From the IMG/VR virus record IMGVR_UViG_3300037156_000058, positions 4,692 through 68,691 of that record: a DNA stretch of 64,000 nt. One strand, 5' to 3'. Source of the stretch: a virus. The first letter of the stretch is position 1, and each line of letters begins with the position of its first letter. Shown one piece after another: positions 12,663 through 64,000 of the stretch. The notes below the pieces were generated by a model. The model saw only the letters and a list, made by a program, of their open reading frames with translations, searched no databases and had not been told where the DNA came from. Made by a program: the position numbers and the translations under genes.

Positions 12663-15481
12663 ATGAAGCTCCAATGTCCGAGAATAGCGCTGGTTCCCCC
12701 GGAGGATGTCACTTTGACTCCTATGCGGTCGCCTTTAGTGATCGTTCCCGTACTGCTCGAATCAAGCAATATGACCCCTGCGGAAGTACCGGCGCTGATA
12801 GTTCCACTCATAAGCGTTGTGTCTGATGTTCCAGTGGAGCCCATGTCCACAACCGATATAGTGGTGGTTACGCCACCTGTCTGTGTTCCTGCAAGGGTAA
12901 GTTGCAGGTACGTGGCAGAACAACCACGCGGGAACGCCACAAAAGCATAAGGCTCCGTCCCATTGCTATATCCACCAAACGGAGCGTAGTAAGTAGTGCT
13001 TGCATTAGTTCCCTCAATCGCTCCCTGCACAATGAATGCCGAGCCGGACGCGGGGGTTATAGACACTCCGAATTCTGTTAGTGAAGGAACCGTCGCAGCG
13101 CCCGGCTCGAACTCCATATCAATATAATGCCCTTGACTAACCGATACGGTATGAGTTAGATCAGCATAGGCGGCAGGGCTTGTGTCTGTTGTTGCCGGGG
13201 TAACGGTTAGGGTTGTTCCAAGCCCGTTGTCATTCATCACCGGGTTTACCGTGAAGACGTTCGTGGGAGCCGTTGTGTGCGAGTACATTAAAGCCTGCAT
13301 GGTTCCCGAGAAGGGAAGCGGCGTGGCGTACTCCAGTTCGGTGGGTCCACATCCACCGGAAAAGCCGCAATATGCAACCGTGCTGGCGGTCATGGCAAAT
13401 GCTTTTGCATTCGTCAAGACCGAAGTCATAAGCCCGCTGTCGGCTAAAAACTCCGCAGTTATGCCACTTATATTAGGAGTGCCCCCGGAATTTTGCTTAG
13501 CCGACGCAAACCCCCACTGCGATCCTTGATCTTCATGCCAATACAATGCGTTTGATTGCGTATAAGAGCCTACTCCAGCATTGGGCTGCACTATCACTCC
13601 ACCGGGAGACGTTCCGTTTATGGCGCTTCCGAATCCGGATGCCGCACAATCTACATCAGCCCCGAATCGTAAAGATGAACCAGCATTAGCAGCAGGAAGT
13701 GATATCGCTACGTTCCGAAAGTACCCGGCTGATGGCCATTGCAAAACTGACCCTGAGGCCTGACATGGCGACGACCCGCTTGCTGCGACAGTCCCTGGCC
13801 AATAATTCCCATTGCCGGAAAAAAGGTTTCCGTATCCGACAATACTCCCAGATGCCGTTGACGATGGCCCTGTAGCGCACGTCGGGCAGGCAATAGTGCC
13901 AGCTGAAGTGATCGGGCCGCCGGTGATTGGTCCGGTTGTGGCGACACTGGTTACGGTTCCAGACCCACCACCACCCCCATTCAAGAGTGTCCATGCCCCG
14001 GTCGCCACGGACGTGCAGGCGGGAGCAGCCGTTCCGCTGGCCGCTGCACACCAGTAATCGTTATGGTTTGTCGTGTCAGAGAACAGATCACCAGGGAGAT
14101 TGCCCGTTACGCTGCCCGGTGCAGCAGTGCCAAAGAATTTCTGAGCCAGAAGTGTTTTATCCGCCGCGCATGTACCGCTGGTTGTGATCGCACCGCCCGT
14201 TAGGCCGCCATTGCAGGTGATGCTAGATATTCCGCTCCCGGCAGCCCCGGTTGCACCTGTAGCCCCGGTTGCACCTGTAGCGCCCGTGGCTCCATTAGCC
14301 CCGGTCTGAGAAATGTAGTAGTTCGCTCCATCCGGTGCGACCTCAACCAGAAATCGTGGGCACCCGCCGGCTGCGGTACAGACTGCAATCGGACCATAAG
14401 CGGCTTGCCCGTTCGCCGTCGCTCCATTCAACCCCACGGCTAAAGTCTGCGTCTGCGACTGATTCATGATCGCCAGCTTGCAATTCGTTCCGCCGAGGGT
14501 GATAGCCGACGCAGGGAGTGAGAACGTAAGGCCGCTGCCTGAGAAGGGAATCGTAGACCCGCAGTCCGATGCCTGCGCCGTGTAGTTGGTGGTCTGCACA
14601 GCCTCAACCGCCGTGGCAATCCCCTGCGGCCCAGCGGGGCCGACGCTGAGAATGTTGAATTGAGTCCCGTCATAGCCGAGGTTGTAAAGATTCCCTGTTC
14701 CGGCTCCGACCGTAATCGTGTTGAGGGCCAGAGGAGCACCCGCGCTGTAGATATTCTTCGCTCCCAGCGTCGATATATCGAGCGTGGCCGCGCCGCTGTT
14801 GTTCACGTCAACCTTCAGGCTCACGGTCATGCCTGCCGTATAGGATGTAAGGGCTGGTGACGGCGTGCAGGTATAAGTAGTCGCGCTGGATGATGCTGTT
14901 TGGCAGTAGGTGCCGCCTGTGACGGAACCCCCTCCCCCACTCAGCACCTGATAGTTCGCGCCGTCGCTGAAAACCTGTTTGCTGGTGTGTGCGGGAACCG
15001 TCAACACGCTGCCGCTGATGTCTGCTGTTGGGCCACCATAGAACGTGCTCGTGGTCGCGGTGACTGTGAGAGAGCCCGCGCCGATATTGTTCACTACTAC
15101 AAACCAGCCCGCCGCGAATCCCGTCGTGCCGGCCTGCGCGATGGTCCACGCCGCTGCCGTGTTCGTGGTCAGGGATGTACCGCAGTCGCCCGTCACAATT
15201 GGGTAGGAACCATTGTGCGCGGCAGTGGCAAGCGTTTCGGATGCCGCTGGAGTTGTCGTGCCCGTCGCTACCGAAATACCGCACGATCCGCTAACCGAGG
15301 TCACTGTACCTGCCGTTGGCGTTGCCCATGAGCATGGCGGCGCCGTTCCGCCAGAATTTGCCTTCAAGACTTGGTTCGTCGTAGCGGAGTTTGTAACGCT
15401 CTCGCATGGACCTGGATTCTGTGCCATCGCAAGAGCGGATCCGAAGGCCATGAGGGCCAGGAGAATTATTAACCGTTTCAT
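12653..15481 (-). CDS. signal-peptide-bearing tail-fibre-like protein with short collagen tract
   Basis: MKRLIILLALMAFGSALAMA|Q; G/T/S/A rich; GAT collagen repeats; GTVTSV fibre motifs. Confidence 0.7.
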   Translation of the reverse strand: MKRLIILLALMAFGSALAMAQNPGPCESVTNSATTNQVLKANSGGTAPPCSWATPTAGTVTSVSGSCGISVATGTTTPAASETLATAAHNGSYPIVTGDCGTSLTTNTAAAWTIAQAGTTGFAAGWFVVVNNIGAGSLTVTATTSTFYGGPTADISGSVLTVPAHTSKQVFSDGANYQVLSGGGGSVTGGTYCQTASSSATTYTCTPSPALTSYTAGMTVSLKVDVNNSGAATLDISTLGAKNIYSAGAPLALNTITVGAGTGNLYNLGYDGTQFNILSVGPAGPQGIATAVEAVQTTNYTAQASDCGSTIPFSGSGLTFSLPASAITLGGTNCKLAIMNQSQTQTLAVGLNGATANGQAAYGPIAVCTAAGGCPRFLVEVAPDGANYYISQTGANGATGATGATGATGATGAAGSGISSITCNGGLTGGAITTSGTCAADKTLLAQKFFGTAAPGSVTGNLPGDLFSDTTNHNDYWCAAASGTAAPACTSVATGAWTLLNGGGGGSGTVTSVATTGPITGGPITSAGTIACPTCATGPSSTASGSIVGYGNLFSGNGNYWPGTVAASGSSPCQASGSVLQWPSAGYFRNVAISLPAANAGSSLRFGADVDCAASGFGSAINGTSPGGVIVQPNAGVGSYTQSNALYWHEDQGSQWGFASAKQNSGGTPNISGITAEFLADSGLMTSVLTNAKAFAMTASTVAYCGFSGGCGPTELEYATPLPFSGTMQALMYSHTTAPTNVFTVNPVMNDNGLGTTLTVTPATTDTSPAAYADLTHTVSVSQGHYIDMEFEPGAATVPSLTEFGVSITPASGSAFIVQGAIEGTNASTTYYAPFGGYSNGTEPYAFVAFPRGCSATYLQLTLAGTQTGGVTTTISVVDMGSTGTSDTTLMSGTISAGTSAGVILLDSSSTGTITKGDRIGVKVTSSGGTSAILGHWSFMCQ

Positions 15482-32805: not shown

Positions 32806-33016
32806 GGGGACGCAGCGTGTCGTAATCGTTGATAGGACTGACGCGACCCTTATCGTTATCCCGGAACCAATTCCTCAACCGGGTCGCAGCCGGGTAACGA
32901 TCCACCGCGGGCCGCACATCCCCCGCCATCCCCTGATCGCCGGGAAGGGAAACGTCGTCGTTGTCGGTCATGCGGTAGCCATGCATGTCTGACATAATAG
33001 CACGGGTTGGGGTCAT
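32798..33016 (-). CDS. hypothetical protein
   Basis: ATGA overlap with the endonuclease stop. Confidence 0.45.
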   Translation of the reverse strand: MTPTRAIMSDMHGYRMTDNDDVSLPGDQGMAGDVRPAVDRYPAATRLRNWFRDNDKGRVSPINDYDTLRPHA

Positions 33017-34026
33017 CGGGTCACCGTGATTTTGGGTTCGGCAAGGAAGGTGTCTACCTTGAAATCCACGCCTGGACGGAACTGAGGTGCTGTCGTCGTG
33101 TCGAAAACTACGTCCTCCGCCCTGGGTTCGTGGTTGGGCGGGAGATCGGGATTCTTCGCAAGCCAATCAGCCTTGGATTTGCGGTCGCTGCCGTAACGCT
33201 CTAAATACCTGAGCGCGTTCAATGCCCATCCGTCAACGTACTCGACCGGGTGCAAAGCGGTATTGCACTTGGCGCACAACAGACCGCGCGCCTCTCCTGT
33301 CTCATGATCGTGGTCGATTACGAGGTACAGGCGCTCTCCAACGATTGCGTTTGGCGGTAGTTTTCTCCCATCGGTGGTTGCTGGACACAATGCACAGTGG
33401 CCACCCTGTTCCGCCAGTTTAGCGTCGTACCAGGCTGGAGTCACCTTGTACTTTTTCATCATCCAAGAAGCACGTACCGAGTCTCTGTTTTCTACGCGCC
33501 ATCCGCTTATCCATTCAGCGAACTCCGCTTTTTCTTCGGGTGTTTGCGCGTCCCTGCGGTCTTGCATTTTAGATCCGACGCAAAGTTTGCATTTTCCGTG
33601 AGTTTGATCCCCAGCAAATTGCGTGACTGGCACGAAAGATTTGCACTTTCCCGCGCACCACTTCAACCCATTGGATTCGGCATCGCGAACCATTTCAATC
33701 GTTATGCCGCGCTTTGCCAGTCTGGGATGTACTTGGTTTGCCCGCGCCTGTCGAAGCAATTCTTTGGCTTCTTCGGTATGGTGCTGACCGTTGCGGGTTC
33801 CTGGTTGCCCAGTGTGGGCGAGCCGCATCTTTTCAATAGTCTCTGGACTGAAAATGCGCCCCTTCATCTTGAGGCTCATAGCGGCCCGCGACTCGGCAGA
33901 CCTGACCCGCCCCGTAGACGCTAACGCTTTCTTTTGCCGCGTCTCCTCGCTGTCTTTCCAGCCCGTTCGTGCGGCGCTTAACCGCGCCTTTTGTTCTTCG
34001 GTAAAATGCTGTCCTTTTGGTGGCAT
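33013..34026 (-). CDS. NUMOD3 + endonuclease VII-family homing endonuclease-like protein
   Basis: HFTEEQKARLS-type repeats; CALC...IDHDHETG.ARGLLCAKCN. Confidence 0.85.
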   Translation of the reverse strand: MPPKGQHFTEEQKARLSAARTGWKDSEETRQKKALASTGRVRSAESRAAMSLKMKGRIFSPETIEKMRLAHTGQPGTRNGQHHTEEAKELLRQARANQVHPRLAKRGITIEMVRDAESNGLKWCAGKCKSFVPVTQFAGDQTHGKCKLCVGSKMQDRRDAQTPEEKAEFAEWISGWRVENRDSVRASWMMKKYKVTPAWYDAKLAEQGGHCALCPATTDGRKLPPNAIVGERLYLVIDHDHETGEARGLLCAKCNTALHPVEYVDGWALNALRYLERYGSDRKSKADWLAKNPDLPPNHEPRAEDVVFDTTTAPQFRPGVDFKVDTFLAEPKITVTR

Positions 34027-47188: not shown

Positions 47189-47266
47189 GGGATAATGGAG
47201 ACGGGCCAGAACGACGTTACCCGCGTCACCCCGGCCCTGAACTTTGCGATTGAAAGGACAATCACA

Positions 47267-47797
47267 ATGCCTATTGGAAAGTATACCCGCAAAATAATTC
47301 CGGTCAAAGACCGTCTTTTAAGCAAGAGATCCATTCAGCCGAACGGTTGCTGGCACTGGACTGGTCACGTGTCCAGGTATGGGTATGGGAAAATCAACGT
47401 CGGCGGCGTAATCAAACCGGCGCATCGTGTTTCGTATGAGGAGTTCGTCGGACCCATCCCCGAAGGGACGGAGCCAGATCATACTTGCCATGATCCAAGA
47501 GAATGTTCGGGTGGTGTCACATGCCCGCACAGAAGATGCTTCAATCCTGAACACATCGAACCCGTCACGAGAGAAAAGAACGCAAGCCGGGAACGCAGTT
47601 GCCATCGCGCGATAAATCCAGCGGTAATGGCTCTTGGCCAACAAGCCGCTGCTAAGAAAAAGAGAGAGCGAACGCATTGCGTTAACGGTCACGAGTTCAC
47701 TCCAGACAATACAAGCATGAAGGCTGGATATCGTCGCTGTAAGGAATGCCACCGGGAAAGCATGAGGGTCACGCAGCCACCTTCTCCCGCTTCATAA
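47267..47797 (+). CDS. HNH homing endonuclease (Zn-binding loop type)
   Basis: CWHWTG...GYG...AHRVSY...DHTC...C.NP.H.E.VT...N; THCVNGHEF; AAGGA RBS. Confidence 0.9.
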   Translation: MPIGKYTRKIIPVKDRLLSKRSIQPNGCWHWTGHVSRYGYGKINVGGVIKPAHRVSYEEFVGPIPEGTEPDHTCHDPRECSGGVTCPHRRCFNPEHIEPVTREKNASRERSCHRAINPAVMALGQQAAAKKKRERTHCVNGHEFTPDNTSMKAGYRRCKECHRESMRVTQPPSPAS

Positions 47798-48521
47798 TCA
47801 CCTTAGTATAAATCCTGTGAACAGCCTGATACACCCATTCACCACCGCTGCGGGTTCGATGCCCTTCGTGATTCAGCCTGTGGGCTATCCAAGGCCACGA
47901 TTTTTTCTGTGCGTGAAGATCGGTTATCCGCGCCATGATTTTTTGTTCTTCGGGGTTTTCCAGAAGGGGCTTTCGGATTTTAAGTTCTTTCTCCGCGGCC
48001 GTTCTCGGTTGCGAAGAGTATCCGAACGCGGGAGGCCCTGCCGGAAAACCCTGAGATTTTATATGCTGGAGGACGGACGTGGTCCTCTCGCCAATTGTCT
48101 CCCTCTCCCAAGAGCTTACTGAGGTCATTATGTTGAGTACGAGACGCCCCGATGCTGAGTTTGTATCGAGAGAGTCTACAACCGACACCAGGCTAACATC
48201 CATCTTTGCAAATATTTTCAGCAGGTCGTTCAGGTCGCCTACGTTTCTCGTCAGCCTGTCCAGCTTGTATATCGCCACGATATCCACTTCGCCGCGAGCG
48301 ATCATTTCAAGCAGGCGCTGCATACCTGGACGCTCCAGTGATTTTGCCGAGGCGTCGGAATCGACTATGGTTTCGATAAGCTCGGCCCCTTTGACTACAG
48401 ACATGGCTTCCAGTTTGTGCTTCTGCATATCTAAACTGACGTCTTGCTTGCACGTTGAAACGCGGCAGTACGCAACCATTCGCGGTGTTTTTATATGTGT
48501 GTCCATGTCATGCTTGAGCAT
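47769..48521 (-). CDS. serine recombinase (resolvase domain + short recombinase-type DNA-binding domain)
   Basis: YCRVST..Q, RPG, KLDRL.R, ERETIGER, P.FGY, IA..LN..G..TR.G..W. Confidence 0.9.
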   Translation of the reverse strand: MLKHDMDTHIKTPRMVAYCRVSTCKQDVSLDMQKHKLEAMSVVKGAELIETIVDSDASAKSLERPGMQRLLEMIARGEVDIVAIYKLDRLTRNVGDLNDLLKIFAKMDVSLVSVVDSLDTNSASGRLVLNIMTSVSSWERETIGERTTSVLQHIKSQGFPAGPPAFGYSSQPRTAAEKELKIRKPLLENPEEQKIMARITDLHAQKKSWPWIAHRLNHEGHRTRSGGEWVYQAVHRIYTKVIMKREKVAA

Positions 48522-52387: not shown

Positions 52388-52599
52388 GCGTAACCGTCCA
52401 CCGACTCCCGCACGTTACCGTGACCGTGGACTCCGAAGAATTAGCTGCCTGGATCGCGAAGCACGGGCCTGATAATAAGGCACGACTCGAATCGACTGCC
52501 TTTTCTACCGGACGCGACAACTATGGGCTCGTCGGGAAAGCCGGAAAGAAAGCGAAAACCGTCAACCACTTCAAGGTTGGCGCGGAGATCGGGCGATGA
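52384..52599 (+). CDS. hypothetical protein
   Basis: GTGA overlap start; coupled to the helicase. Confidence 0.5.
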   Translation: MSVTVHRLPHVTVTVDSEELAAWIAKHGPDNKARLESTAFSTGRDNYGLVGKAGKKAKTVNHFKVGAEIGR

Positions 52600-54119
52600 T
52601 CCTCCGTCCTGCGCAAATTAAATTCCGCGAAGACCTCCGTGACGCGTTGCGCTCGAATCGGGCCGTTCTCGGGGTCGCCAGTTGCGGATTCGGCAAAGGC
52701 ACGGTGATGCAAAACATCCTGATGTCTGCCGTCGAAAAAGACAAACACGTGTTGATGTTGGTTCATGGCCGCGACCGCGTTAACGATGCTGTTGAACGTG
52801 CGACAAAACTCGGAATTCCCCACGGCGTTCTGATGGGCAGCAAAAAGCGTGAGCGCTGGCACAAGATCCAACTCGCATCGTCCGATACCGTCCACCGGAT
52901 GAAGGATAAGCCAAAGGGCGACCTGATCGTGATTGACGAGGCCCACCTCAGTCTTAGCCCTACGTTCCGTGGTGTGCTCGAAGAATACCCGAACGCGAAA
53001 ATTATCGGGCTCACTGCTACACCAGTTCTCGGTAATGGAAAGCCGCTCGGCATCCGCTCGGGAGGAATTTTCGATTCGATGGTCAAGGGGCCTTCCGTTA
53101 AGGAACTAATCTCTGACGGTCACCTTGTTCGATCTGAGGTCATTGCCCCTACTCCGCCGACCGATCTGAAGGGGTTGAAAAAACTCAAGACTGGCGAATT
53201 TGATTCTGAACAGGGAGCCGCGATCTGCGACAACGCGAAGATCATCGGCGACGTGGTGGACCACTACCGACGCTACGCTTCGCATCTGAAGGCCGTCTCG
53301 TTTGGGTTCAACCAGAAGCACGCCTTCGATATCGCGGAGTCGTTTCGCGCTGCCGGTTTCAATTGGGCATATGTGGACGCGAATACTCCAGACGGAGACA
53401 TTCACACGCCGGGAACAAGAAAGTTCATCTGGCACCAGTACGACAATGGCGACTTGCAGGGGATAAGCGCGGTAGGTGTCGTCGCGACCGGCTGGGACCA
53501 TGCGGTCTGTAAATGCTTACTGCTTTGCAGCAAGACTAGCAGCCTTCCGCTCTATCATCAGCGCCTCGGGCGTGGCTCGCGTCCGCACACTGGACACGAT
53601 CATTTCCGGGTCCATGACCACACAGGAAACCTGTTTGAGTTTATGGACGTAGGCCCGTTCTTCGAATCGGAGATCGACTGGAAACTCGACGGACCTCCGT
53701 CGAAAGACTCAGAGAAGCGAATGAGTACCTGCGATCAGCAGGTCCCTGGCGATCCCGCTCCCCGGTTCATCGGCCCGTACCTGAATGGCGTCATGCTTCC
53801 CTGCATGCGCCCGTTCGAGACCGGGCCGAGGGAATGCCCGAACTGTTTTATCCCGATCGTCACAGCAGGGCGCGATGCGTCCGAGATCGAAGCGGAGGCG
53901 GGTGAGCTTGAGGCGATCACGGAAGAAATGCGCGCCGCGGCGGAAGATCGTATTCGAGCGCAGTCGGTTCGTAAGGCGGAATATCTCGACCTCGTGAAGC
54001 TTCAGAAAAATAAAGGCTACAAAAAAGGCTACCCGGCTATTATTTTTAAGTCCAAATACGGGCAGTGGCCGCCGAGCGGCTGGAAAGCTGAAGTAGAGTT
54101 CGCTGCGGGGGTCCGATGA
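52596..54119 (+). CDS. SF2 DEAH helicase
   Basis: GFGKG, DEAH, TATP, TGWD, QRLGRGSR motifs; C-terminal zinc finger. Confidence 0.9.
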   Translation: MILRPAQIKFREDLRDALRSNRAVLGVASCGFGKGTVMQNILMSAVEKDKHVLMLVHGRDRVNDAVERATKLGIPHGVLMGSKKRERWHKIQLASSDTVHRMKDKPKGDLIVIDEAHLSLSPTFRGVLEEYPNAKIIGLTATPVLGNGKPLGIRSGGIFDSMVKGPSVKELISDGHLVRSEVIAPTPPTDLKGLKKLKTGEFDSEQGAAICDNAKIIGDVVDHYRRYASHLKAVSFGFNQKHAFDIAESFRAAGFNWAYVDANTPDGDIHTPGTRKFIWHQYDNGDLQGISAVGVVATGWDHAVCKCLLLCSKTSSLPLYHQRLGRGSRPHTGHDHFRVHDHTGNLFEFMDVGPFFESEIDWKLDGPPSKDSEKRMSTCDQQVPGDPAPRFIGPYLNGVMLPCMRPFETGPRECPNCFIPIVTAGRDASEIEAEAGELEAITEEMRAAAEDRIRAQSVRKAEYLDLVKLQKNKGYKKGYPAIIFKSKYGQWPPSGWKAEVEFAAGVR

Positions 54120-55237: not shown

Positions 55238-55498
55238 ATGCCGAACAAAGACAGGCTGTCAGAAGAAGAGTTTGTACGCAAAACCGTTATTTCCAATATC
55301 GTCGGAATCACGAAATTTTGGATAACTCTTCGCGACTATCCGATAGAGAAAATGGTTTACTCCGGCGATCAGATGGTTGCTGAGATGTTGGAAAAATCCG
55401 GGCTTCGCGAAGAGATTATCCGCGTCATCGGCCTATACGACAGGGCTTCCAATACATCTACGGACTTGAGCGTGTTGCAGTACCGGGACTCCAAGTGA
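55238..55498 (+). CDS. hypothetical protein
   Basis: AAGGTG RBS; coupled to the next gene. Confidence 0.55.
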   Translation: MPNKDRLSEEEFVRKTVISNIVGITKFWITLRDYPIEKMVYSGDQMVAEMLEKSGLREEIIRVIGLYDRASNTSTDLSVLQYRDSK

Positions 55499-57297
55499 CT
55501 CCGGAACCAGAACCTGAATCTGTAGACGCCAAAGAACTGGCGAAAAAAATAATTGAATCAGGCAAGGCCAGCGACACGATGGAGGAATCTTTTCTCCGCG
55601 CCGTCGCGCTGCTGACGGAACTTGAACAGGCACGCATCAAAATGGATCTTCGGGCGGCGTTTAAGTCCGCATTCGTGAAATCCGAATGGATGAGCCAGGT
55701 GCGGATATTTATTCCAAAGAAGCCTGTAATCGTCACACCGCGCCCACGTTCAGACCTGCCGGAAATCATCGTATCCGACCGTCAACTTCGCGATATCACG
55801 AAAGACGCGGTAGCGGCTCTATGCAGGGCCAATCTGGATAATCCGTTTCTTTTTGTGCGTTCAGGATCTGTCTGCCATGTAGTCCGAGATGAAATCGGCA
55901 GGCCGTCTGTTGAGGATGCTTCTGATTCCTGGATACGCGGCACGATGTCGCGAACAGCGGACTGGACGCGAGTGAACGAATACAACCAATTCAAGGGCAC
56001 GTTCCCGTCGCCGGAAGTTGTGCGCGATGTTTTATCTCTCGATAACCCGCCGTTTCCGCCACTGATGTCCGTCACGGAAGTTCCGACGTTGCGCGCGGAC
56101 GGCACAATCCTAGACCGTCCCGGATACGATCCGGTTTCCTCCGTTTTTTATTCTCCAGCCTCGACACTGACAACTTACCCGCTCCCAAAAACTCCCAGTC
56201 GCGAACAGGTCAAAGAGGCCCGCGATCTCATCAACGAAGCCATCGGTGAGTTCCCCTACGCCAACAGAGCCAGCCGCGCAAATGTATTCGGGCTCCTGTT
56301 GACTCCCGTTCTGCGGCCCGCTCTTTATGGCTGCACACCGCTCGCGGTAGTTGACGCTCCACAGGCCGGAACAGGAAAGTCTCTCTTGATCGACGTTCTC
56401 TCAATCATCACCACCGGGCGGCCGGCGGCGATGGTTCCGTTTCCCTACCAGGAAGACGAGATGAAAAAGCAAATCGGCGCGAGTCTCACCGCTGGGCGCC
56501 AATTGATTGCGTTCGACAATCTGGAAGGGAAGTTGAAATCCCCGGCACTGGCTCTCGCGCTCACCGCCAAAGAATTCGAGTCCCGCATTTTGGGGTTCTC
56601 GAAAAATATGACGGTCCCGAATATGGCGACATGGATCGTCACCGGAAACAACATCGTCCCCGCAGGAGACATGCCGCGGCGTTGCTACCAGATCCGGCTC
56701 GATGCAAAAGAGTCGAAACCATATACCGGTCGATCATTCAAGCATCCGGACCTTCTCCGGTGGGTGACGGAAAACCGCAGCCAGCTTCTTCACGCCCTTC
56801 TACTCATCGCCCGTTACTGGTTCGCATCCGGGAGTCCGGTGTACGACCTCGGCCCGGTAATTGGCTCCTTCGAGGACTGGCACCGCAAGGTGGGCGGGAT
56901 TGTCACCCACGCCGGGATACCGGGGTTCCTGTCCAACTACGCGACGTTCATTGAGCAGGAAGACGAGTCGCCCGCACAGTGGGAAGACTTCCTTGCCAGA
57001 ATCATGGAACTTTGGGTGGACATCGCAGAGCCGGATGCTTCCAAGTACTTCTCCATCGCGGAGATTGTAGACCGATTACGGGCAGCAGAATCATCCATAC
57101 GCGACCAAGCTCCCGCCGAAATCGCGGACTGCCTTGAGCGAAAAGTAAACCACCGCATTGCAGTCGGCCGACTTTTCAGTTCCCGCCGCGACCGGCGCTT
57201 CGGAAACGGGAAAGAGCAACTGCATCTCGACCGGGAAGTGCAGGCCACCGACCACAAGGGATCTTTCCGGTGGCGGGTTGTTCGCACCACGTCGTAG
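55495..57297 (+). CDS. primase-associated P-loop ATPase / SF3-like helicase
   Basis: PGYD, APQAGTGKS, AFDN, VTGNN, DM.RR motifs. Confidence 0.8.
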   Translation: MTPEPEPESVDAKELAKKIIESGKASDTMEESFLRAVALLTELEQARIKMDLRAAFKSAFVKSEWMSQVRIFIPKKPVIVTPRPRSDLPEIIVSDRQLRDITKDAVAALCRANLDNPFLFVRSGSVCHVVRDEIGRPSVEDASDSWIRGTMSRTADWTRVNEYNQFKGTFPSPEVVRDVLSLDNPPFPPLMSVTEVPTLRADGTILDRPGYDPVSSVFYSPASTLTTYPLPKTPSREQVKEARDLINEAIGEFPYANRASRANVFGLLLTPVLRPALYGCTPLAVVDAPQAGTGKSLLIDVLSIITTGRPAAMVPFPYQEDEMKKQIGASLTAGRQLIAFDNLEGKLKSPALALALTAKEFESRILGFSKNMTVPNMATWIVTGNNIVPAGDMPRRCYQIRLDAKESKPYTGRSFKHPDLLRWVTENRSQLLHALLLIARYWFASGSPVYDLGPVIGSFEDWHRKVGGIVTHAGIPGFLSNYATFIEQEDESPAQWEDFLARIMELWVDIAEPDASKYFSIAEIVDRLRAAESSIRDQAPAEIADCLERKVNHRIAVGRLFSSRRDRRFGNGKEQLHLDREVQATDHKGSFRWRVVRTTS

Positions 57298-57353
57298 ACA
57301 ATACCAACATCCTTGGCCATTGATCCCGCGCGCAGGACATTCACAACTGTAGT

Positions 57354-57623
57354 TTGGGGAATCAATTCCCCAACCCCCCACAAATAAGTCCCATAGAATC
57401 AACGTTGGGGAAATTGGGGAAAGTTGCTGACCGCCAGCCCTCATGCACGTAAAGCTACAACACGAGCAACACACAGTAACAACAGAATTACGGCTCTTAT
57501 GTGAGTCCCATATTATTTCCCCAATTCCCCAATTTCATACTGAAATCTTTTGTACCTGAAAGAAAATTAAGAAGTTAACTATTTGGGGAATTGCTTGGGG
57601 AATGGTTGGGGAAACGTGGGGAA
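57354..57623. repeat. iteron-like TTGGGGAA array, putative replication origin
   Basis: Nine exact copies in both orientations plus one near copy, with an AT-rich spacer, directly after the ATPase gene. Confidence 0.65.
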
Positions 57624-58024
57624 TTGGAAATATACCTCGGAGCCCACTCGCCGCCCCACCCCAAAACCCCCACGACGAATCGCCAGACCACCGTATTTAG
57701 CGTTTACAGCCCCGCCAGCGATTTCCGTGTGTACTGGGTGCGGAAAACCCCCAACGATTGAAATTTACCGTGGTTCTGTGATACTGGAGGCCATCCTGCA
57801 TTCACACCGTACCAACAATTCTCGATAGGGGGGCGACGTGTGAGGTACTTGGTTCAGGCCCCCGGTACCTCATGGTGGCAAGGAGATGGCTAGGAGGGTA
57901 GATGGCACAGGTCTACGTCTACAGCGTAGTCCTCGTCTATACCTGGAAGTAGTCCTTCGACAAGGAGTAGACCTACCTTGTCCTGTTGTTGATAACACTA
58001 GACTTACTGGGGTATACTGTAGCT

Positions 58025-58174
58025 ATGAAGACAGCAGAGCAGGTTCAGGCAAGGATTGAAGAGTTGATGAAGTGCCGAGAGGTGCTGAAGGACGCGAAGC
58101 CAGCCAGGGAAGACTGCGAAGCTCGGATCAATACCTTGCGTTGGGTTCTGGACATCGTCACACGGAAGTTCTGA
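58025..58174 (+). CDS. 49-aa protein, apparently leaderless
   Basis: TTGATA-18-TATACT-6 nt-ATG; RINTLRWVL phage motif. Confidence 0.65.
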   Translation: MKTAEQVQARIEELMKCREVLKDAKPAREDCEARINTLRWVLDIVTRKF

Positions 58175-58241
58175 CCACAACCTGTAGTGATCAGGCGCTT
58201 TACGCCGCAAAGCACGCCAGTAAACCCTTTGTTTTCAATCA

Positions 58242-58269
58242 ACTTCCGATAACAGCCATTATGTCAAAT
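58242..58269 (+). other. dif-like XerC/XerD recombination site
   Basis: ACTTCCGATAA-CAGCCA-TTATGTCAAAT (11-6-11); right arm matches E. coli dif TTATGTTAAAT at 10/11; intergenic. Confidence 0.75.
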
Positions 58270-58310
58270 TATCCCGCTTTTTGGCTGTAAATCGCTGAAA
58301 ACTTAGGCGT

Positions 58311-58751
58311 TTATTCTCCAGGAGCGCCGTCAACGATGATCGTAATGCCGGCCTTAGCTGGTTTACCGTGCTCATCGAGCATCTGGAGTGCTGTACGGTC
58401 GCCGTAACGGTTCGGAGCGAGCTTCGAGGCCACCCAGCGTCTCTGTTCGATCCGGAGCTTAGACCGTGCAACCCACTCAGAATCGACCTTCGCATCGCCA
58501 TTTCCGGCCGTCGTAGTGTCCCTGGAAGCGTCGTCTGCGATCTCAGTTGCTTCGTCGATCAAAGCATCGCAGCCCAACCCGCGTGCACGCGCAAACTTGT
58601 TTCCCCACTCTTCCGATTCAGCCCAATCGAGCACCGTAAATCGAGACGGCATATCGGGATCGCGGCAGATTGCAGAGAGAGTTTCACCATGGCTCAAACG
58701 GACTAAGATCCGCTCTTTCACCTCGTCGCCGTAGATTGCAATTCCTGCCAT
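58311..58751 (-). CDS. terS: terminase small subunit (Sf6-like)
   Basis: GETLSAIC.DPDMPS..TV..W...ARAR...EIADD...RSKLRIE.RRW.ASKLAP.RYGD. Confidence 0.9.
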   Translation of the reverse strand: MAGIAIYGDEVKERILVRLSHGETLSAICRDPDMPSRFTVLDWAESEEWGNKFARARGLGCDALIDEATEIADDASRDTTTAGNGDAKVDSEWVARSKLRIEQRRWVASKLAPNRYGDRTALQMLDEHGKPAKAGITIIVDGAPGE

Positions 58752-58792
58752 GTGGAGATTTTAGCGCGTTTGCAGTCATGTGGCGAGATATG

Positions 58793-59179
58793 TCACTGAT
58801 TAAGTAATCGGGTTATATGGGAATTTAACTCCTCAGTCCAGCGAAACCACTCGCCAACCGAACGAAGTTTTGCAAATGAATTATGGACCTGCCGTTCTAG
58901 TTTGCGGGTTCCGTGGATTGCGCCGATTAACCGCAACGTAGATTGCATGGCGTTCCTGGGAATTGCTACGCACGGCGTGCAGCAACGTAAAGACTGGATG
59001 CGTTTTTGCGGATTTTGCGACCATCCGATTTTGACGTAACCGAAACCTGTAACGATGGATTGACAATGGGCGAAATATACATAGCCAGCCTTTGCAATTT
59101 TGGTTTTTGGTTTGCGCTTCCTTCGGGTAATAGGGCATGGGTCCAATCCATCCAGGATTCGCCTTACTGAGGTTTTCAT
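58793..59179 (-). CDS. T5orf172-type GIY-YIG protein
   Basis: GYVYF...VKIGWS..P.KR...L...E...H..F...R..GEWF; ATGA overlap start. Confidence 0.85.
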   Translation of the reverse strand: MKTSVRRILDGLDPCPITRRKRKPKTKIAKAGYVYFAHCQSIVTGFGYVKIGWSQNPQKRIQSLRCCTPCVAIPRNAMQSTLRLIGAIHGTRKLERQVHNSFAKLRSVGEWFRWTEELNSHITRLLNQ

Positions 59180-59322
59180 AGCGGCTTCAGGCTTTCGCGT
59201 TTTGCTCTGCTGAGTTGTTCGGAGACTCTCGCACGGCAGCGTTTGCAGTCGAGTCTGGGTTTGCGGTGGCACGGTTTTGGGCCTGGCCGTTTTTTCGGGA
59301 TTGGGCGTGATTGATCTTGCAT
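59176..59322 (-). CDS. 48-aa basic Cys/His protein (not in ORF track)
   Basis: MQDQSRPIPKKRPGPKPCHRKPRLDCKRCRARVSEQLSRAKRESLKPL*; TAAACT 7 nt before ATG; coupled to the next gene. Confidence 0.55.
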   Translation of the reverse strand: MQDQSRPIPKKRPGPKPCHRKPRLDCKRCRARVSEQLSRAKRESLKPL

Positions 59323-59329
59323 ATCTGCA

Positions 59330-59396
59330 AGTTTACAGCAATCAAAAGAAAGTTTGCAAATAGTTCTTGCAATCGTCTTGCAATTAAGTTTATGAT
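59330..59396. promoter_or_regulatory. divergent promoter pair with repeated TTGCAA
   Basis: Leftward TTGCAA-18-TAAACT; rightward TTGCAA-18-TATGAT; three exact TTGCAA palindromes. Confidence 0.6.
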
Positions 59397-59555
59397 GGTT
59401 TTGTCACCGAGACACAAACGCAATCGCGAAACTCCGCGAGGCGTTGAAGACTCTCGAAGTGGACACGCTCGACGCGGCGGAACTCCTGGGGGAATAGATG
59501 CCGATCACCATCAAAGGAATCCGGCTGGAGACAACCGGAAGATAAGGAGATTACC

Positions 59556-60356
59556 ATGCAGAAAAAGACTGAAGAATTTGGGGACGCCTACAAGGCCGTC
59601 CGAATGATCTACGACAATTCACCGGGTCGAAGCTGGCAAAGGCTGAACGGATCTCTCGCGGGAACACTCGCGTCCGCCATTGAAGCGCACCTGTCATTCC
59701 TTCCCGGCGACTTCTCTCTCATGCGGCGAACGATGAGCGGTCACTACTGGATGGGAAACAGTGAAGGCGATGTTTGCGGGGAGCGGTTTTATTCAATGGC
59801 TGTTAAGTTCGGACACACTCCCGCGTGCATCTCTTTCGAGCAGTACGCAGAACGGCCTGCGGCGCTGTGGCCTGAAGACGTGAAGACTCCAGCACGTCTG
59901 TGCATCGGGTCCGATATGCACTGGCAAGGCATCAAGGTCGCCGTTACAAACATCCGCGAGAACCATCTGATTCTGTGCTCGTACAAAGAATACGACAGCA
60001 TGAAACTTGAAATCGGATCGACGAAATGGATCGATGACAAGTACCGCAAAGTTACGGGCGTGCAGCGCCACGAAGACGGCCTGACGGTTGCTTTCGGTTC
60101 CGAGGTGAAGCGCGAAGACTTGCGCAAGGTTGATCGCCGATTCAAAGTCACATTCGCGGACCTGAAGACGGCGCGCAAAGTATTCGATGACCGGCAGAAA
60201 CAGGCTATCGCCCTGATCGACTCGGCCACCGACAAAGAATCACTCGCGTTGAAATCGTTGGCTGCTGGGAAATTGGGACCGGTTCGCCCGTTCGACCTCA
60301 AGGCAGTTAATGACGCGATTGCGGCCAAGGAAAAATCATTCGAGGTTACACGATGA
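59556..60356 (+). CDS. hypothetical early protein
   Basis: TAAGGAG RBS; 266 aa. Confidence 0.8.
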   Translation: MQKKTEEFGDAYKAVRMIYDNSPGRSWQRLNGSLAGTLASAIEAHLSFLPGDFSLMRRTMSGHYWMGNSEGDVCGERFYSMAVKFGHTPACISFEQYAERPAALWPEDVKTPARLCIGSDMHWQGIKVAVTNIRENHLILCSYKEYDSMKLEIGSTKWIDDKYRKVTGVQRHEDGLTVAFGSEVKREDLRKVDRRFKVTFADLKTARKVFDDRQKQAIALIDSATDKESLALKSLAAGKLGPVRPFDLKAVNDAIAAKEKSFEVTR

Positions 60357-63471: not shown

Positions 63472-63579
63472 GCGAATCAACGACCAAAGGATTTGAGATG
63501 ACAGAAACGGAGATTATGGACGCATCTATCAAGGTCATCCAGTTGCCGATTCGTTGGCAAGAACGGAGAGCGGCATAAA

Positions 63580-64000
63580 ATGTGCAATTTCGCCTCATTC
63601 GTGCTGACAAAAGACCGTGAGTTCTGGTCTGACACATCCGACTCGCATACGGATATCATCCGTGAGCACTCCCTATGTGAGGATGGAGCGCGCGGAGTAA
63701 ATATTATCCGCGTGGAGATTTCCCCGACGGACAAGATCAAGATTTGGCCTTCGCTGAAAGCGTGGTCGTACAAGGTCGACCAGGACATCTTACCGGAGTG
63801 GCACATTCGGGAGACGACCGAGAAGCGCACGCGCGCGGCGTTGGCGCGCCGATTTAAGTCAGGGTTCACGCGGCTGGACCTGAGCGGCTGTACCGGACTC
63901 ACCGAGGTATCCGCCCCGGCCGCGACCGTACTGGACCTGAGCGGCTGTACCGGACTCACCGAGGTATCCGCCCCGGCCGCGACCGTACTGGACCTGAGCG
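63580..64000 (+). CDS. leucine-rich-repeat protein, partial (runs off window)
   Basis: MCNFASFVLTKD...VDQDILPEW N-domain, then LDLSGCTGLTEVSAPAATV repeats. Confidence 0.8.
   Translation, partial: MCNFASFVLTKDREFWSDTSDSHTDIIREHSLCEDGARGVNIIRVEISPTDKIKIWPSLKAWSYKVDQDILPEWHIRETTEKRTRAALARRFKSGFTRLDLSGCTGLTEVSAPAATVLDLSGCTGLTEVSAPAATVLDLS
63874..64000 (+). repeat. perfect 57-bp tandem repeat (at least 2.2 copies)
   Basis: Units start at 63874, 63931 and 63988. Confidence 0.95.

Follow-up and report, generated by a model that had tools for sequence, protein, structure and literature searches.

A dif-type XerCD site on an accessory insert of a tailed phage from peat metagenomes, a candidate for recombination with the host chromosome

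We analyzed a 64,000-nt stretch of viral DNA (the window), which comprises bases 4692-68691 of the 68,691-bp IMG/VR record IMGVR_UViG_3300037156_000058, classed as linear and ~79% complete according to CheckV. The record is that of a tailed phage. An initial annotation of the window had described an 11-6-11 sequence with the spacer CAGCCA as a dif-like XerCD site, and the sequence is present exactly as noted at 58242-58269 and is unique in the window. It lies, as had also been stated, between convergent genes, namely an open reading frame (ORF) of 49 aa on the plus strand and the gene for the small terminase subunit (terS) on the minus strand. The site is intergenic, 68 nt beyond the stop codon of the 49-aa ORF and 42 nt beyond that of terS. 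The features at the locus are as follows.

58242..58269, plus strand: dif-type 11-6-11 site; left arm, spacer and right arm are ACTTCCGATAA CAGCCA TTATGTCAAAT
58242-58252, plus strand: left arm of the site, ACTTCCGATAA, XerC side by analogy
58253-58258, plus strand: spacer of the site, CAGCCA
58259-58269, plus strand: right arm of the site, TTATGTCAAAT, XerD side by analogy
58219..58316, plus strand: imperfect long hairpin embedding the site (RNA fold)
58025-58174, plus strand: 49-aa ORF, an orphan of doubtful coding status
58311-58751, minus strand: terS, Sf6 type (PF20901, E 1e-31; phrog_1482, E 1.5e-30)

The arms were assigned to XerC and XerD on the assumption that the arrangement of E. 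coli dif carries over to the phage site. The inner ATAA/TTAT dyad around the 6-bp spacer, which is part of the dif-type layout, is present. No second match to the site occurs in the window at up to three mismatches, and none of 100 shuffled sequences contained one (0/100). The generic dif core, which we take to be ATAA-N6-TTATGTNAANT, matched the window only at this site with up to one mismatch allowed, for 0.02 matches expected, while the 18 specified bases TCCGATAA-N6-TTATGTCAANT (the core pattern) are expected 6e-7 times in both strands of the 68,691-bp record. This expectation and the agreeing shuffles indicate that the site is not a chance match. The record holds a single site at up to four mismatches of the core, and the next best sequence (4/18 mismatches) is ~15.7 kb off. 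Judged by its arms, layout and non-chance status, the phage sequence is a genuine dif-type site.

To place the site among chromosomal sequences, we scanned one genome per bacterial species with the core pattern and obtained at least 120 loci, each holding a single site; most belong to Acidobacteriota, Actinomycetota, Myxococcota/'delta' and Nitrospirota. These sites are the chromosomal dif of these groups. Among the matches listed, both arms of the phage site are identical to those of an Acidobacteriia metagenome-assembled genome (MAG) (L095; 22/22 arm bases), and a Bryobacteraceae MAG (L059) is identical at 25/28 positions, which bears out the initial comparison with dif as far as the arms are concerned. 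The exact left arm ACTTCCGATAA was found at 14 of the at least 120 loci (120 listed), six of them in Acidobacteriota. Spacers starting with CAG are present in 6/120 sites among the matches listed, and five of these six belong to Acidobacteriota-labelled MAGs. In a sample of 401 Acidobacteriota genomes, 11 carry a site within three mismatches of the phage site when three positions are left free. The phage site thus has the same layout as chromosomal dif and the arms of Acidobacteriia MAGs, but differs in its location on a phage and in the end of its spacer: CAGCCA departs from the usual chromosomal spacer ending, and C is found at spacer position 4 in 6% of 99 unique chromosomal sites. The runs holding the phage are labelled as peat metagenome. 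Because of these labels, the arm matches and the CAG spacers, the phage host is likely to be a peat Acidobacteriota bacterium.

Sites of this type are not confined to the window's phage. The core pattern was found in 53 viral contigs (L131-L183) versus four for a reversed control, an enrichment of ~13-fold. The usual spacer ending [AT][TC]A is present in 65/99 unique chromosomal sites versus 14/42 unique viral sites (p = 7e-4); since the viral spacers are unlike the chromosomal ones, the viral sites are not just host DNA at the edges of prophages. PF00589 is absent from 44 of the 49 viral site-bearing records, the other five having a tyrosine recombinase, and a serine recombinase was found in 2 of the 50 such records searched. 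Seven viral records that are at least 98% complete were tested for both recombinase families. A tyrosine recombinase is present in G414 and G415 and a short serine recombinase in G407 and G408, while G409, G412 and G413 lack either type. As far as the sequences tell, intact dif mimics are recurrent in tailed-phage-sized genomes without integrases, a pattern that speaks for a function of such sites.

The clearest gene arrangement was seen in G412 (L298), which is a complete phage genome of 58.6 kb, has terminal repeats and lacks both tyrosine and serine recombinases. At 14565-15280 of this genome, the site follows an HTH_17 (excisionase-type) gene by 34 nt, and an HTH_3 (Cro/CI-type) gene precedes it. 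By analogy, this position is the attP place of a lysogeny module, here without an integrase; as a candidate tailed phage that exploits Xer, G412 is more convincing than the window's phage. G413 (70 kb, with a 3,565-aa ORF) has five structural proteins in common with the window's phage at 23-31% identity and carries its dif-type site elsewhere in its genome; the 3,565-aa ORF has no sequence match in PDB and its middle part none among GenBank phages. The flanks of the G413 and G409 sites contain no Pfam family. With 39 proteins in common, G407 and G408 are related to each other; the spacers of their sites differ. We also observed that related viral contigs share identical sites, for example L132/L138/L147/L154/L161, and that G415 has two sites in direct repeat, 72 nt apart.

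The phage itself had been described as having no integrase in view. This holds for tyrosine recombinases, as PF00589 is absent from the whole record, but not for serine recombinases, of which a truncated gene was found.

47769-48521, minus strand: truncated large-serine-recombinase gene, 250 aa (PF00239, E 1.3e-35), the sole recombinase gene in the record

Its product consists of the catalytic domain and the first half of the Recombinase domain, covering only positions 1-50 of 102 in PF07508, and aligns to positions 80-308 of 651 of phrog_95 'integrase', in the N-terminal 40% of the profile. Neither the second half nor the zinc ribbon is present elsewhere in the record, so that the ~79% of the genome covered shows no usable phage integrase. 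The gene looks like a decayed large serine integrase, which may have been destroyed by the insertion of a homing endonuclease. It shares 29 nt with an HNH endonuclease gene that runs in the opposite direction (window 47195-48521).

Phages among the integrative mobile elements exploiting Xer (IMEX) carry a dif-like site whose spacer is unlike that of host dif, and they encode no integrase (PMC12715192, PMC6744903, PMC9226527). Genomic islands and plasmids are known to hijack host Xer for integration, as are small filamentous and double-jelly-roll phages; the IMEX phages in the literature covered are inoviruses and double-jelly-roll phages only (PMC12715192). Tailed plasmid-prophages appear in it only with their own Xer-like recombinases (PMC8026635). 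In this literature we found no tailed phage relying on a mimic of host dif without its own recombinase, and the supplements of the IMEX papers, outside this scope, may list further dif-type prophages. The window's phage shares the dif-like site, as a candidate attP, and the departing spacer with VGJphi, CTXphi and TLCphi (filamentous, Vibrio) and with the dif-type double-jelly-roll prophages. It differs from them in several respects: it is a tailed double-stranded DNA phage of ~69 kb, whereas they are inoviruses of <16 kb or double-jelly-roll phages; its host phylum is probably Acidobacteriota and not that of Vibrio, the host of the filamentous ones; the neighbors of its site are terS and the orphan ORF rather than an RstR-type repressor or an XafT-type activation factor; no integrated copy was found in the genomes described below; and its site is accessory within the lineage.

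With these likenesses and differences in view, we tentatively favor the reading that the phage has acquired a functional XerCD site, which would let it recombine with host dif in an IMEX-like manner; this is a possibility put forward from sequence comparison and is held at less than even confidence. The site would have been gained horizontally on an insert of ~300 bp just past terS. Host XerC would bind ACTTCCGATAA and XerD would bind TTATGTCAAAT, and the partner would be the host dif of Terriglobales/Bryobacterales, ACTTCCGATAA-CAG..A-TTATGTCAA.T. CAGCCA appears to agree with spacers of this type only on the XerC side (CAG...A), and because of this one-sided agreement the first strand pair would be exchanged with chromosomal dif by XerC. 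The Holliday junction would then be settled by replication and not by XerD/FtsK, and the phage genome would become part of the chromosome at dif with no phage integrase involved, as in VGJphi-type IMEX elements. Should the site prove functional, phages taken to be 'virulent' because they have no integrase may nevertheless integrate, with consequences for how lifestyles are predicted from viromes, most of all in soil phyla such as Acidobacteriota. To our knowledge, no phage genetics exists for this phylum. The 53 viral contigs and the three complete genomes without a recombinase provide a set for testing.

Several observations weigh against this reading, the first group of which concerns the DNA that carries the site and the relatives of the phage. 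The features of this DNA are as follows.

58010..58310: accessory insert of ~300 bp with the orphan ORF and the site (blastn and MAFFT versus L190)
57840..58009: non-coding stretch bordering the insert, 78% identical to L190
57989..58018, plus strand: sigma-70-like promoter TTGATA-18-TATACT (consensus scan, 10/12; a pattern match only)

The viral collection contained no close relative of the phage: the phage site with a free spacer and a conserved 26-mer from 57845-57870 gave 0 matches each, and a scan of viral contigs with the TerS protein gave one weak locus. G406, retrieved via the primase-polymerase-like protein, was rejected as a mosaic relative with few shared proteins and no site at up to three mismatches. 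An alignment search for terS homologues yielded eight metagenome and 80 viral loci, in total 88 loci of 582,562 bases. The nearest relative found was L190, a 5.25-kb contig whose terS is 58% identical. By blastn and MAFFT, it is 83% identical to the phage in DNA up to the terS stop codon, and the similarity resumes at 78% over 57840-58009; between these segments, where the phage has the ORF and site, the L190 sequence is unrelated and ~70 bases long. The site is therefore accessory and not needed by the lineage. Furthermore, only L192 among the 88 loci has a site at up to three mismatches, and the reversed control also gave one. L192 (terS 43% identical) carries a degenerate site at 544-571 with 3/18 core mismatches, 37 nt beyond the terS stop codon and in the same orientation as the phage site. 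Its weight-matrix score of 16.3 bits is the highest of 1,764 windows and exceeds those of all 1,677 control windows (maximum 15.2), which is suggestive of a decayed homologous site. Conservation of the site in relatives, on which the initial annotation had made its proposal depend, is thus contradicted by the unrelated DNA in L190 and upheld in part by the degenerate site at the same place in L192.

In the other runs, the locus was recovered with phage DNA around it. In two other peat runs, X2 and X3, independent contigs extend across the site into phage DNA left and right of it, and the site is therefore not an assembly chimera. The record 5 contig covers 58018-58444 with five differences from the phage and the record 14 contig covers 57891-58588 with 22 differences; no change is listed in the strain-variant contigs between 58135 and 58370, which is weak evidence of conservation at 1-3% divergence. 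No joint at the site was seen in the contigs of four runs over 56500-60000, and such contigs, which drop rare forms, are uninformative on integration. In run X1, the probable source of the phage, a 447-nt contig of depth 2.9 (record 2) matches only 58240-58272, with three differences, and has flanks unrelated to the phage. It represents a further site of dif type from this community, which may be host dif or a dispersed repeat of the type described below. The 49-aa ORF, whose ATG is 7 nt behind the end of the promoter-like sequence, had been proposed as an accessory factor, a role that we could not support: it has no Pfam or PHROG family, it is the sole match to itself among 5.8 billion clustered proteins, and both of its strain variants, C17Y and T37I, are non-synonymous. 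The conserved block at 57840-58009, inside which the L190 contig terminates, contains a perfectly conserved 30-mer with a GAGGTAC...GTACCTC dyad and repeated GTAGAC/GTAGTCC words.

A second point against the favored reading is the likeness of the site to a dispersed repeat. The search of the 401 Acidobacteriota genomes revealed one genome, G225, with five strict site matches on five contigs. The G225 site, GCTTCCGATAA CGGCCA TTATGTCAATT followed by TTTCCCGC, is the core of a 160-310-nt repeat with 37 BLAST matches on at least 15 contigs. Copies of the repeat occur in either orientation at distances of 1-4 kb and are interspersed with single accessory genes, which encode a restriction-modification pair of DNA methylase and ScaI-type nuclease, a PIN protein, methyltransferases or orphan products; the cores of the copies are intact or decaying dif-type sites, many copies being decayed. 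The phage site and its next eight bases differ from the G225 repeat core at only 3/35 positions. The T[AT]TCCCGC extension is absent from all 118 chromosomal sites (among the matches listed) and all 42 viral unique sites. The likeness ends after these 35 nt, and the remaining repeat is absent from the phage. G225 is a 3.4-Mb genome; its repeats L317-L326 lie on contigs C18, C44, C47, C23, C63, C3 and C7, and it has only three tyrosine recombinases, one of which is ~5 kb from repeat copies on C7. The repeat may be an undescribed Xer-type cassette or a system of miniature inverted-repeat transposable elements. Xer-type sites thus also occur as dispersed repeats in Acidobacteriota, and the phage insert may be one such copy.

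As the closest sequence relative of the site outside the core is a multi-copy repeat, these findings favor the explanation that the insert is a passenger, derived from Xer-type (dif-derived) mobile or dispersed repeats of the host clade, which landed with its orphan ORF and plays no part in the phage life cycle, even if Xer moves or has moved it. We regard this, the main rival, as only slightly less probable than the favored reading. The insert has sharp borders relative to L190, at the terS stop codon and the conserved non-coding block, its ORF is an orphan, and it lies in a genome already heavily colonized by selfish genes; the low-depth X1 contig shows a near-identical site in other DNA. 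Small accessory segments with XerC/D-type sites are also known as pdif or dif modules from Acinetobacter plasmids (PMC6449649, PMC7399989), which the G225 repeats, with single accessory genes between them, resemble in appearance. Such modules have inversely oriented sites at both borders, whereas the record, with its one site, has no segment framed in this way, and the phylum and replicon type differ. It also counts against a passenger that the likeness to the G225 repeat stops after 35 nt, that this type of repeat was found in only 1/401 sampled genomes, that both phage arms are intact where many G225 copies have decayed, and that it leaves unexplained why intact sites are in excess among viral genomes without an integrase. 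In a wider proposal, which we consider unlikely, tailed double-stranded DNA phages of soil and peat bacteria would form an undescribed Xer-exploiting class with dif mimics of altered spacer and without an integrase, which lysogenize or recombine via host XerCD. The window's phage would belong to it with a 300-bp cassette and its own serine integrase decayed, and related cassettes would circulate between Acidobacteriota chromosomes and phages.

The remaining objections to recombination with host dif come from the gene content and the bacterial genomes. Phage homologues beside dif were not found at any of the 120 chromosomal loci among the matches listed, and the 401 Acidobacteriota genomes contained one distant structural relative (G019:C46, a 104.6-kb contig) without a dif-like site at up to four mismatches; integration at host dif, as initially proposed, is thus unsupported by any prophage relative bounded at dif in these small samples. 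About 21% of the genome is missing. In a Pfam pass, the 80 ORFs examined gave matches to 26 families, 25 of them visible, and among these there is no Cro/CI-type or excisionase-type helix-turn-helix family and no DUF3653. Homing endonucleases are numerous (two HNH, two NUMOD3, GIY-YIG, T5orf172 and endonuclease VII), and such abundance is more usual in virulent phages. The visible part of the phage looks virulent, which weighs against integration. The same pass revealed no ParA/ParB and no Rep in this incomplete record, and with no repressor family either, the suggestion of a phage-plasmid is not borne out. This bears directly on the explanation that the site is a cer/psi-like multimer-resolution site, by which host XerCD would resolve dimers of a circular phage replicon. 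Like the phage site, plasmid Xer resolution sites combine a full Xer core with a spacer other than that of dif, and cer and psi have ~150-180 bp of accessory sequence on the XerC side, bound by PepA/ArgR/ArcA. The TTGGGGAAT repeat cluster, a candidate origin beside the primase-polymerase-like and helicase genes, is ~560-900 bp from the site. But cer and psi are plasmid sites, while the replicon here is a phage in which no partition or plasmid Rep family was seen among the 80 ORFs, whose relative L190 lacks the site and which, packaging concatemers, would have no obvious need of dimer resolution. Known tailed plasmid-prophages have partition systems besides their Xer-like recombinases (PMC8026635). 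Dimer resolution is therefore rather improbable.

The site might also have no Xer role at all, forming instead a hairpin that ends the convergent terS and small-ORF transcripts or being there for some other reason, its dif likeness a relic of captured host DNA. The RNA fold of 58170-58320 (151 nt) has -38.1 kcal/mol and z = -3.7, with 0/200 shuffles folding equally well, and places the spacer stretch ACAGCCA (58252-58258) in a 7-bp stem with TGGCTGT (58283-58289); the position between convergent genes suits such a function too. Nevertheless, no T-run terminator was called at the site by consensus scan, and the identity of 22/22 arm bases to real dif would be needless for a relic or a hairpin. 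The site is also unchanged in three runs, which weighs little at the divergence seen. We consider this explanation unlikely, if less so than dimer resolution. An artefact, that is, a chance match, host contamination or chimeric assembly, is close to refuted: its sole point in favor is that the record is a metagenome assembly, which stands against the expectation of 6e-7, the phage genes on both sides and the X2 and X3 contigs that bridge the site. Recombination with host dif thus remains our preferred, tentative reading of the phage site.

The other genes around the site include the following.

52596-54119, plus strand: helicase gene
55495-57297, plus strand: primase-polymerase-like gene
58793-59272, minus strand: T5orf172/GIY-YIG-type gene

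A NUDIX gene and a gene for a RecE-like PDDEXK nuclease are located further right of the terS region. TerS is 35-43% identical to annotated TerS of GenBank phages. The minus-strand block at 9.3-51 kb encodes a capsid-like protein (phrog_14242, weak) and proteins with tail-fibre-like and depolymerase-like domains. Among 50,697 GenBank phage records, none matches the capsid-like protein, and neither it nor the portal-like protein has a PDB sequence match; the phage lineage is therefore new. The label 'podovirus-like' of the initial annotation, or 'N4-like', is accordingly not established. Across the window, the majority of structural proteins match neither PHROG nor Pfam families, and no tRNA or Rfam family was detected. 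A Ros/MucR domain was rejected as a switch gene, being located inside a 236-aa ORF of the structural block, far from the site. An endonuclease VII fusion is encoded at 33013-34026.

The candidate origin of the initial annotation corresponds to an iteron-like cluster of TTGGGGAA(T/A) repeats in both orientations at window 57350-57680, directly after the primase-polymerase-like gene. At the ends of the record, minus-strand ORFs are cut on both sides (G000:C1 1-618; window 63477-63998), and one gene may span the unassembled gap between them. The ends of an independent 68,149-nt contig from run X1 fall within about 100-440 bp of those of the record.
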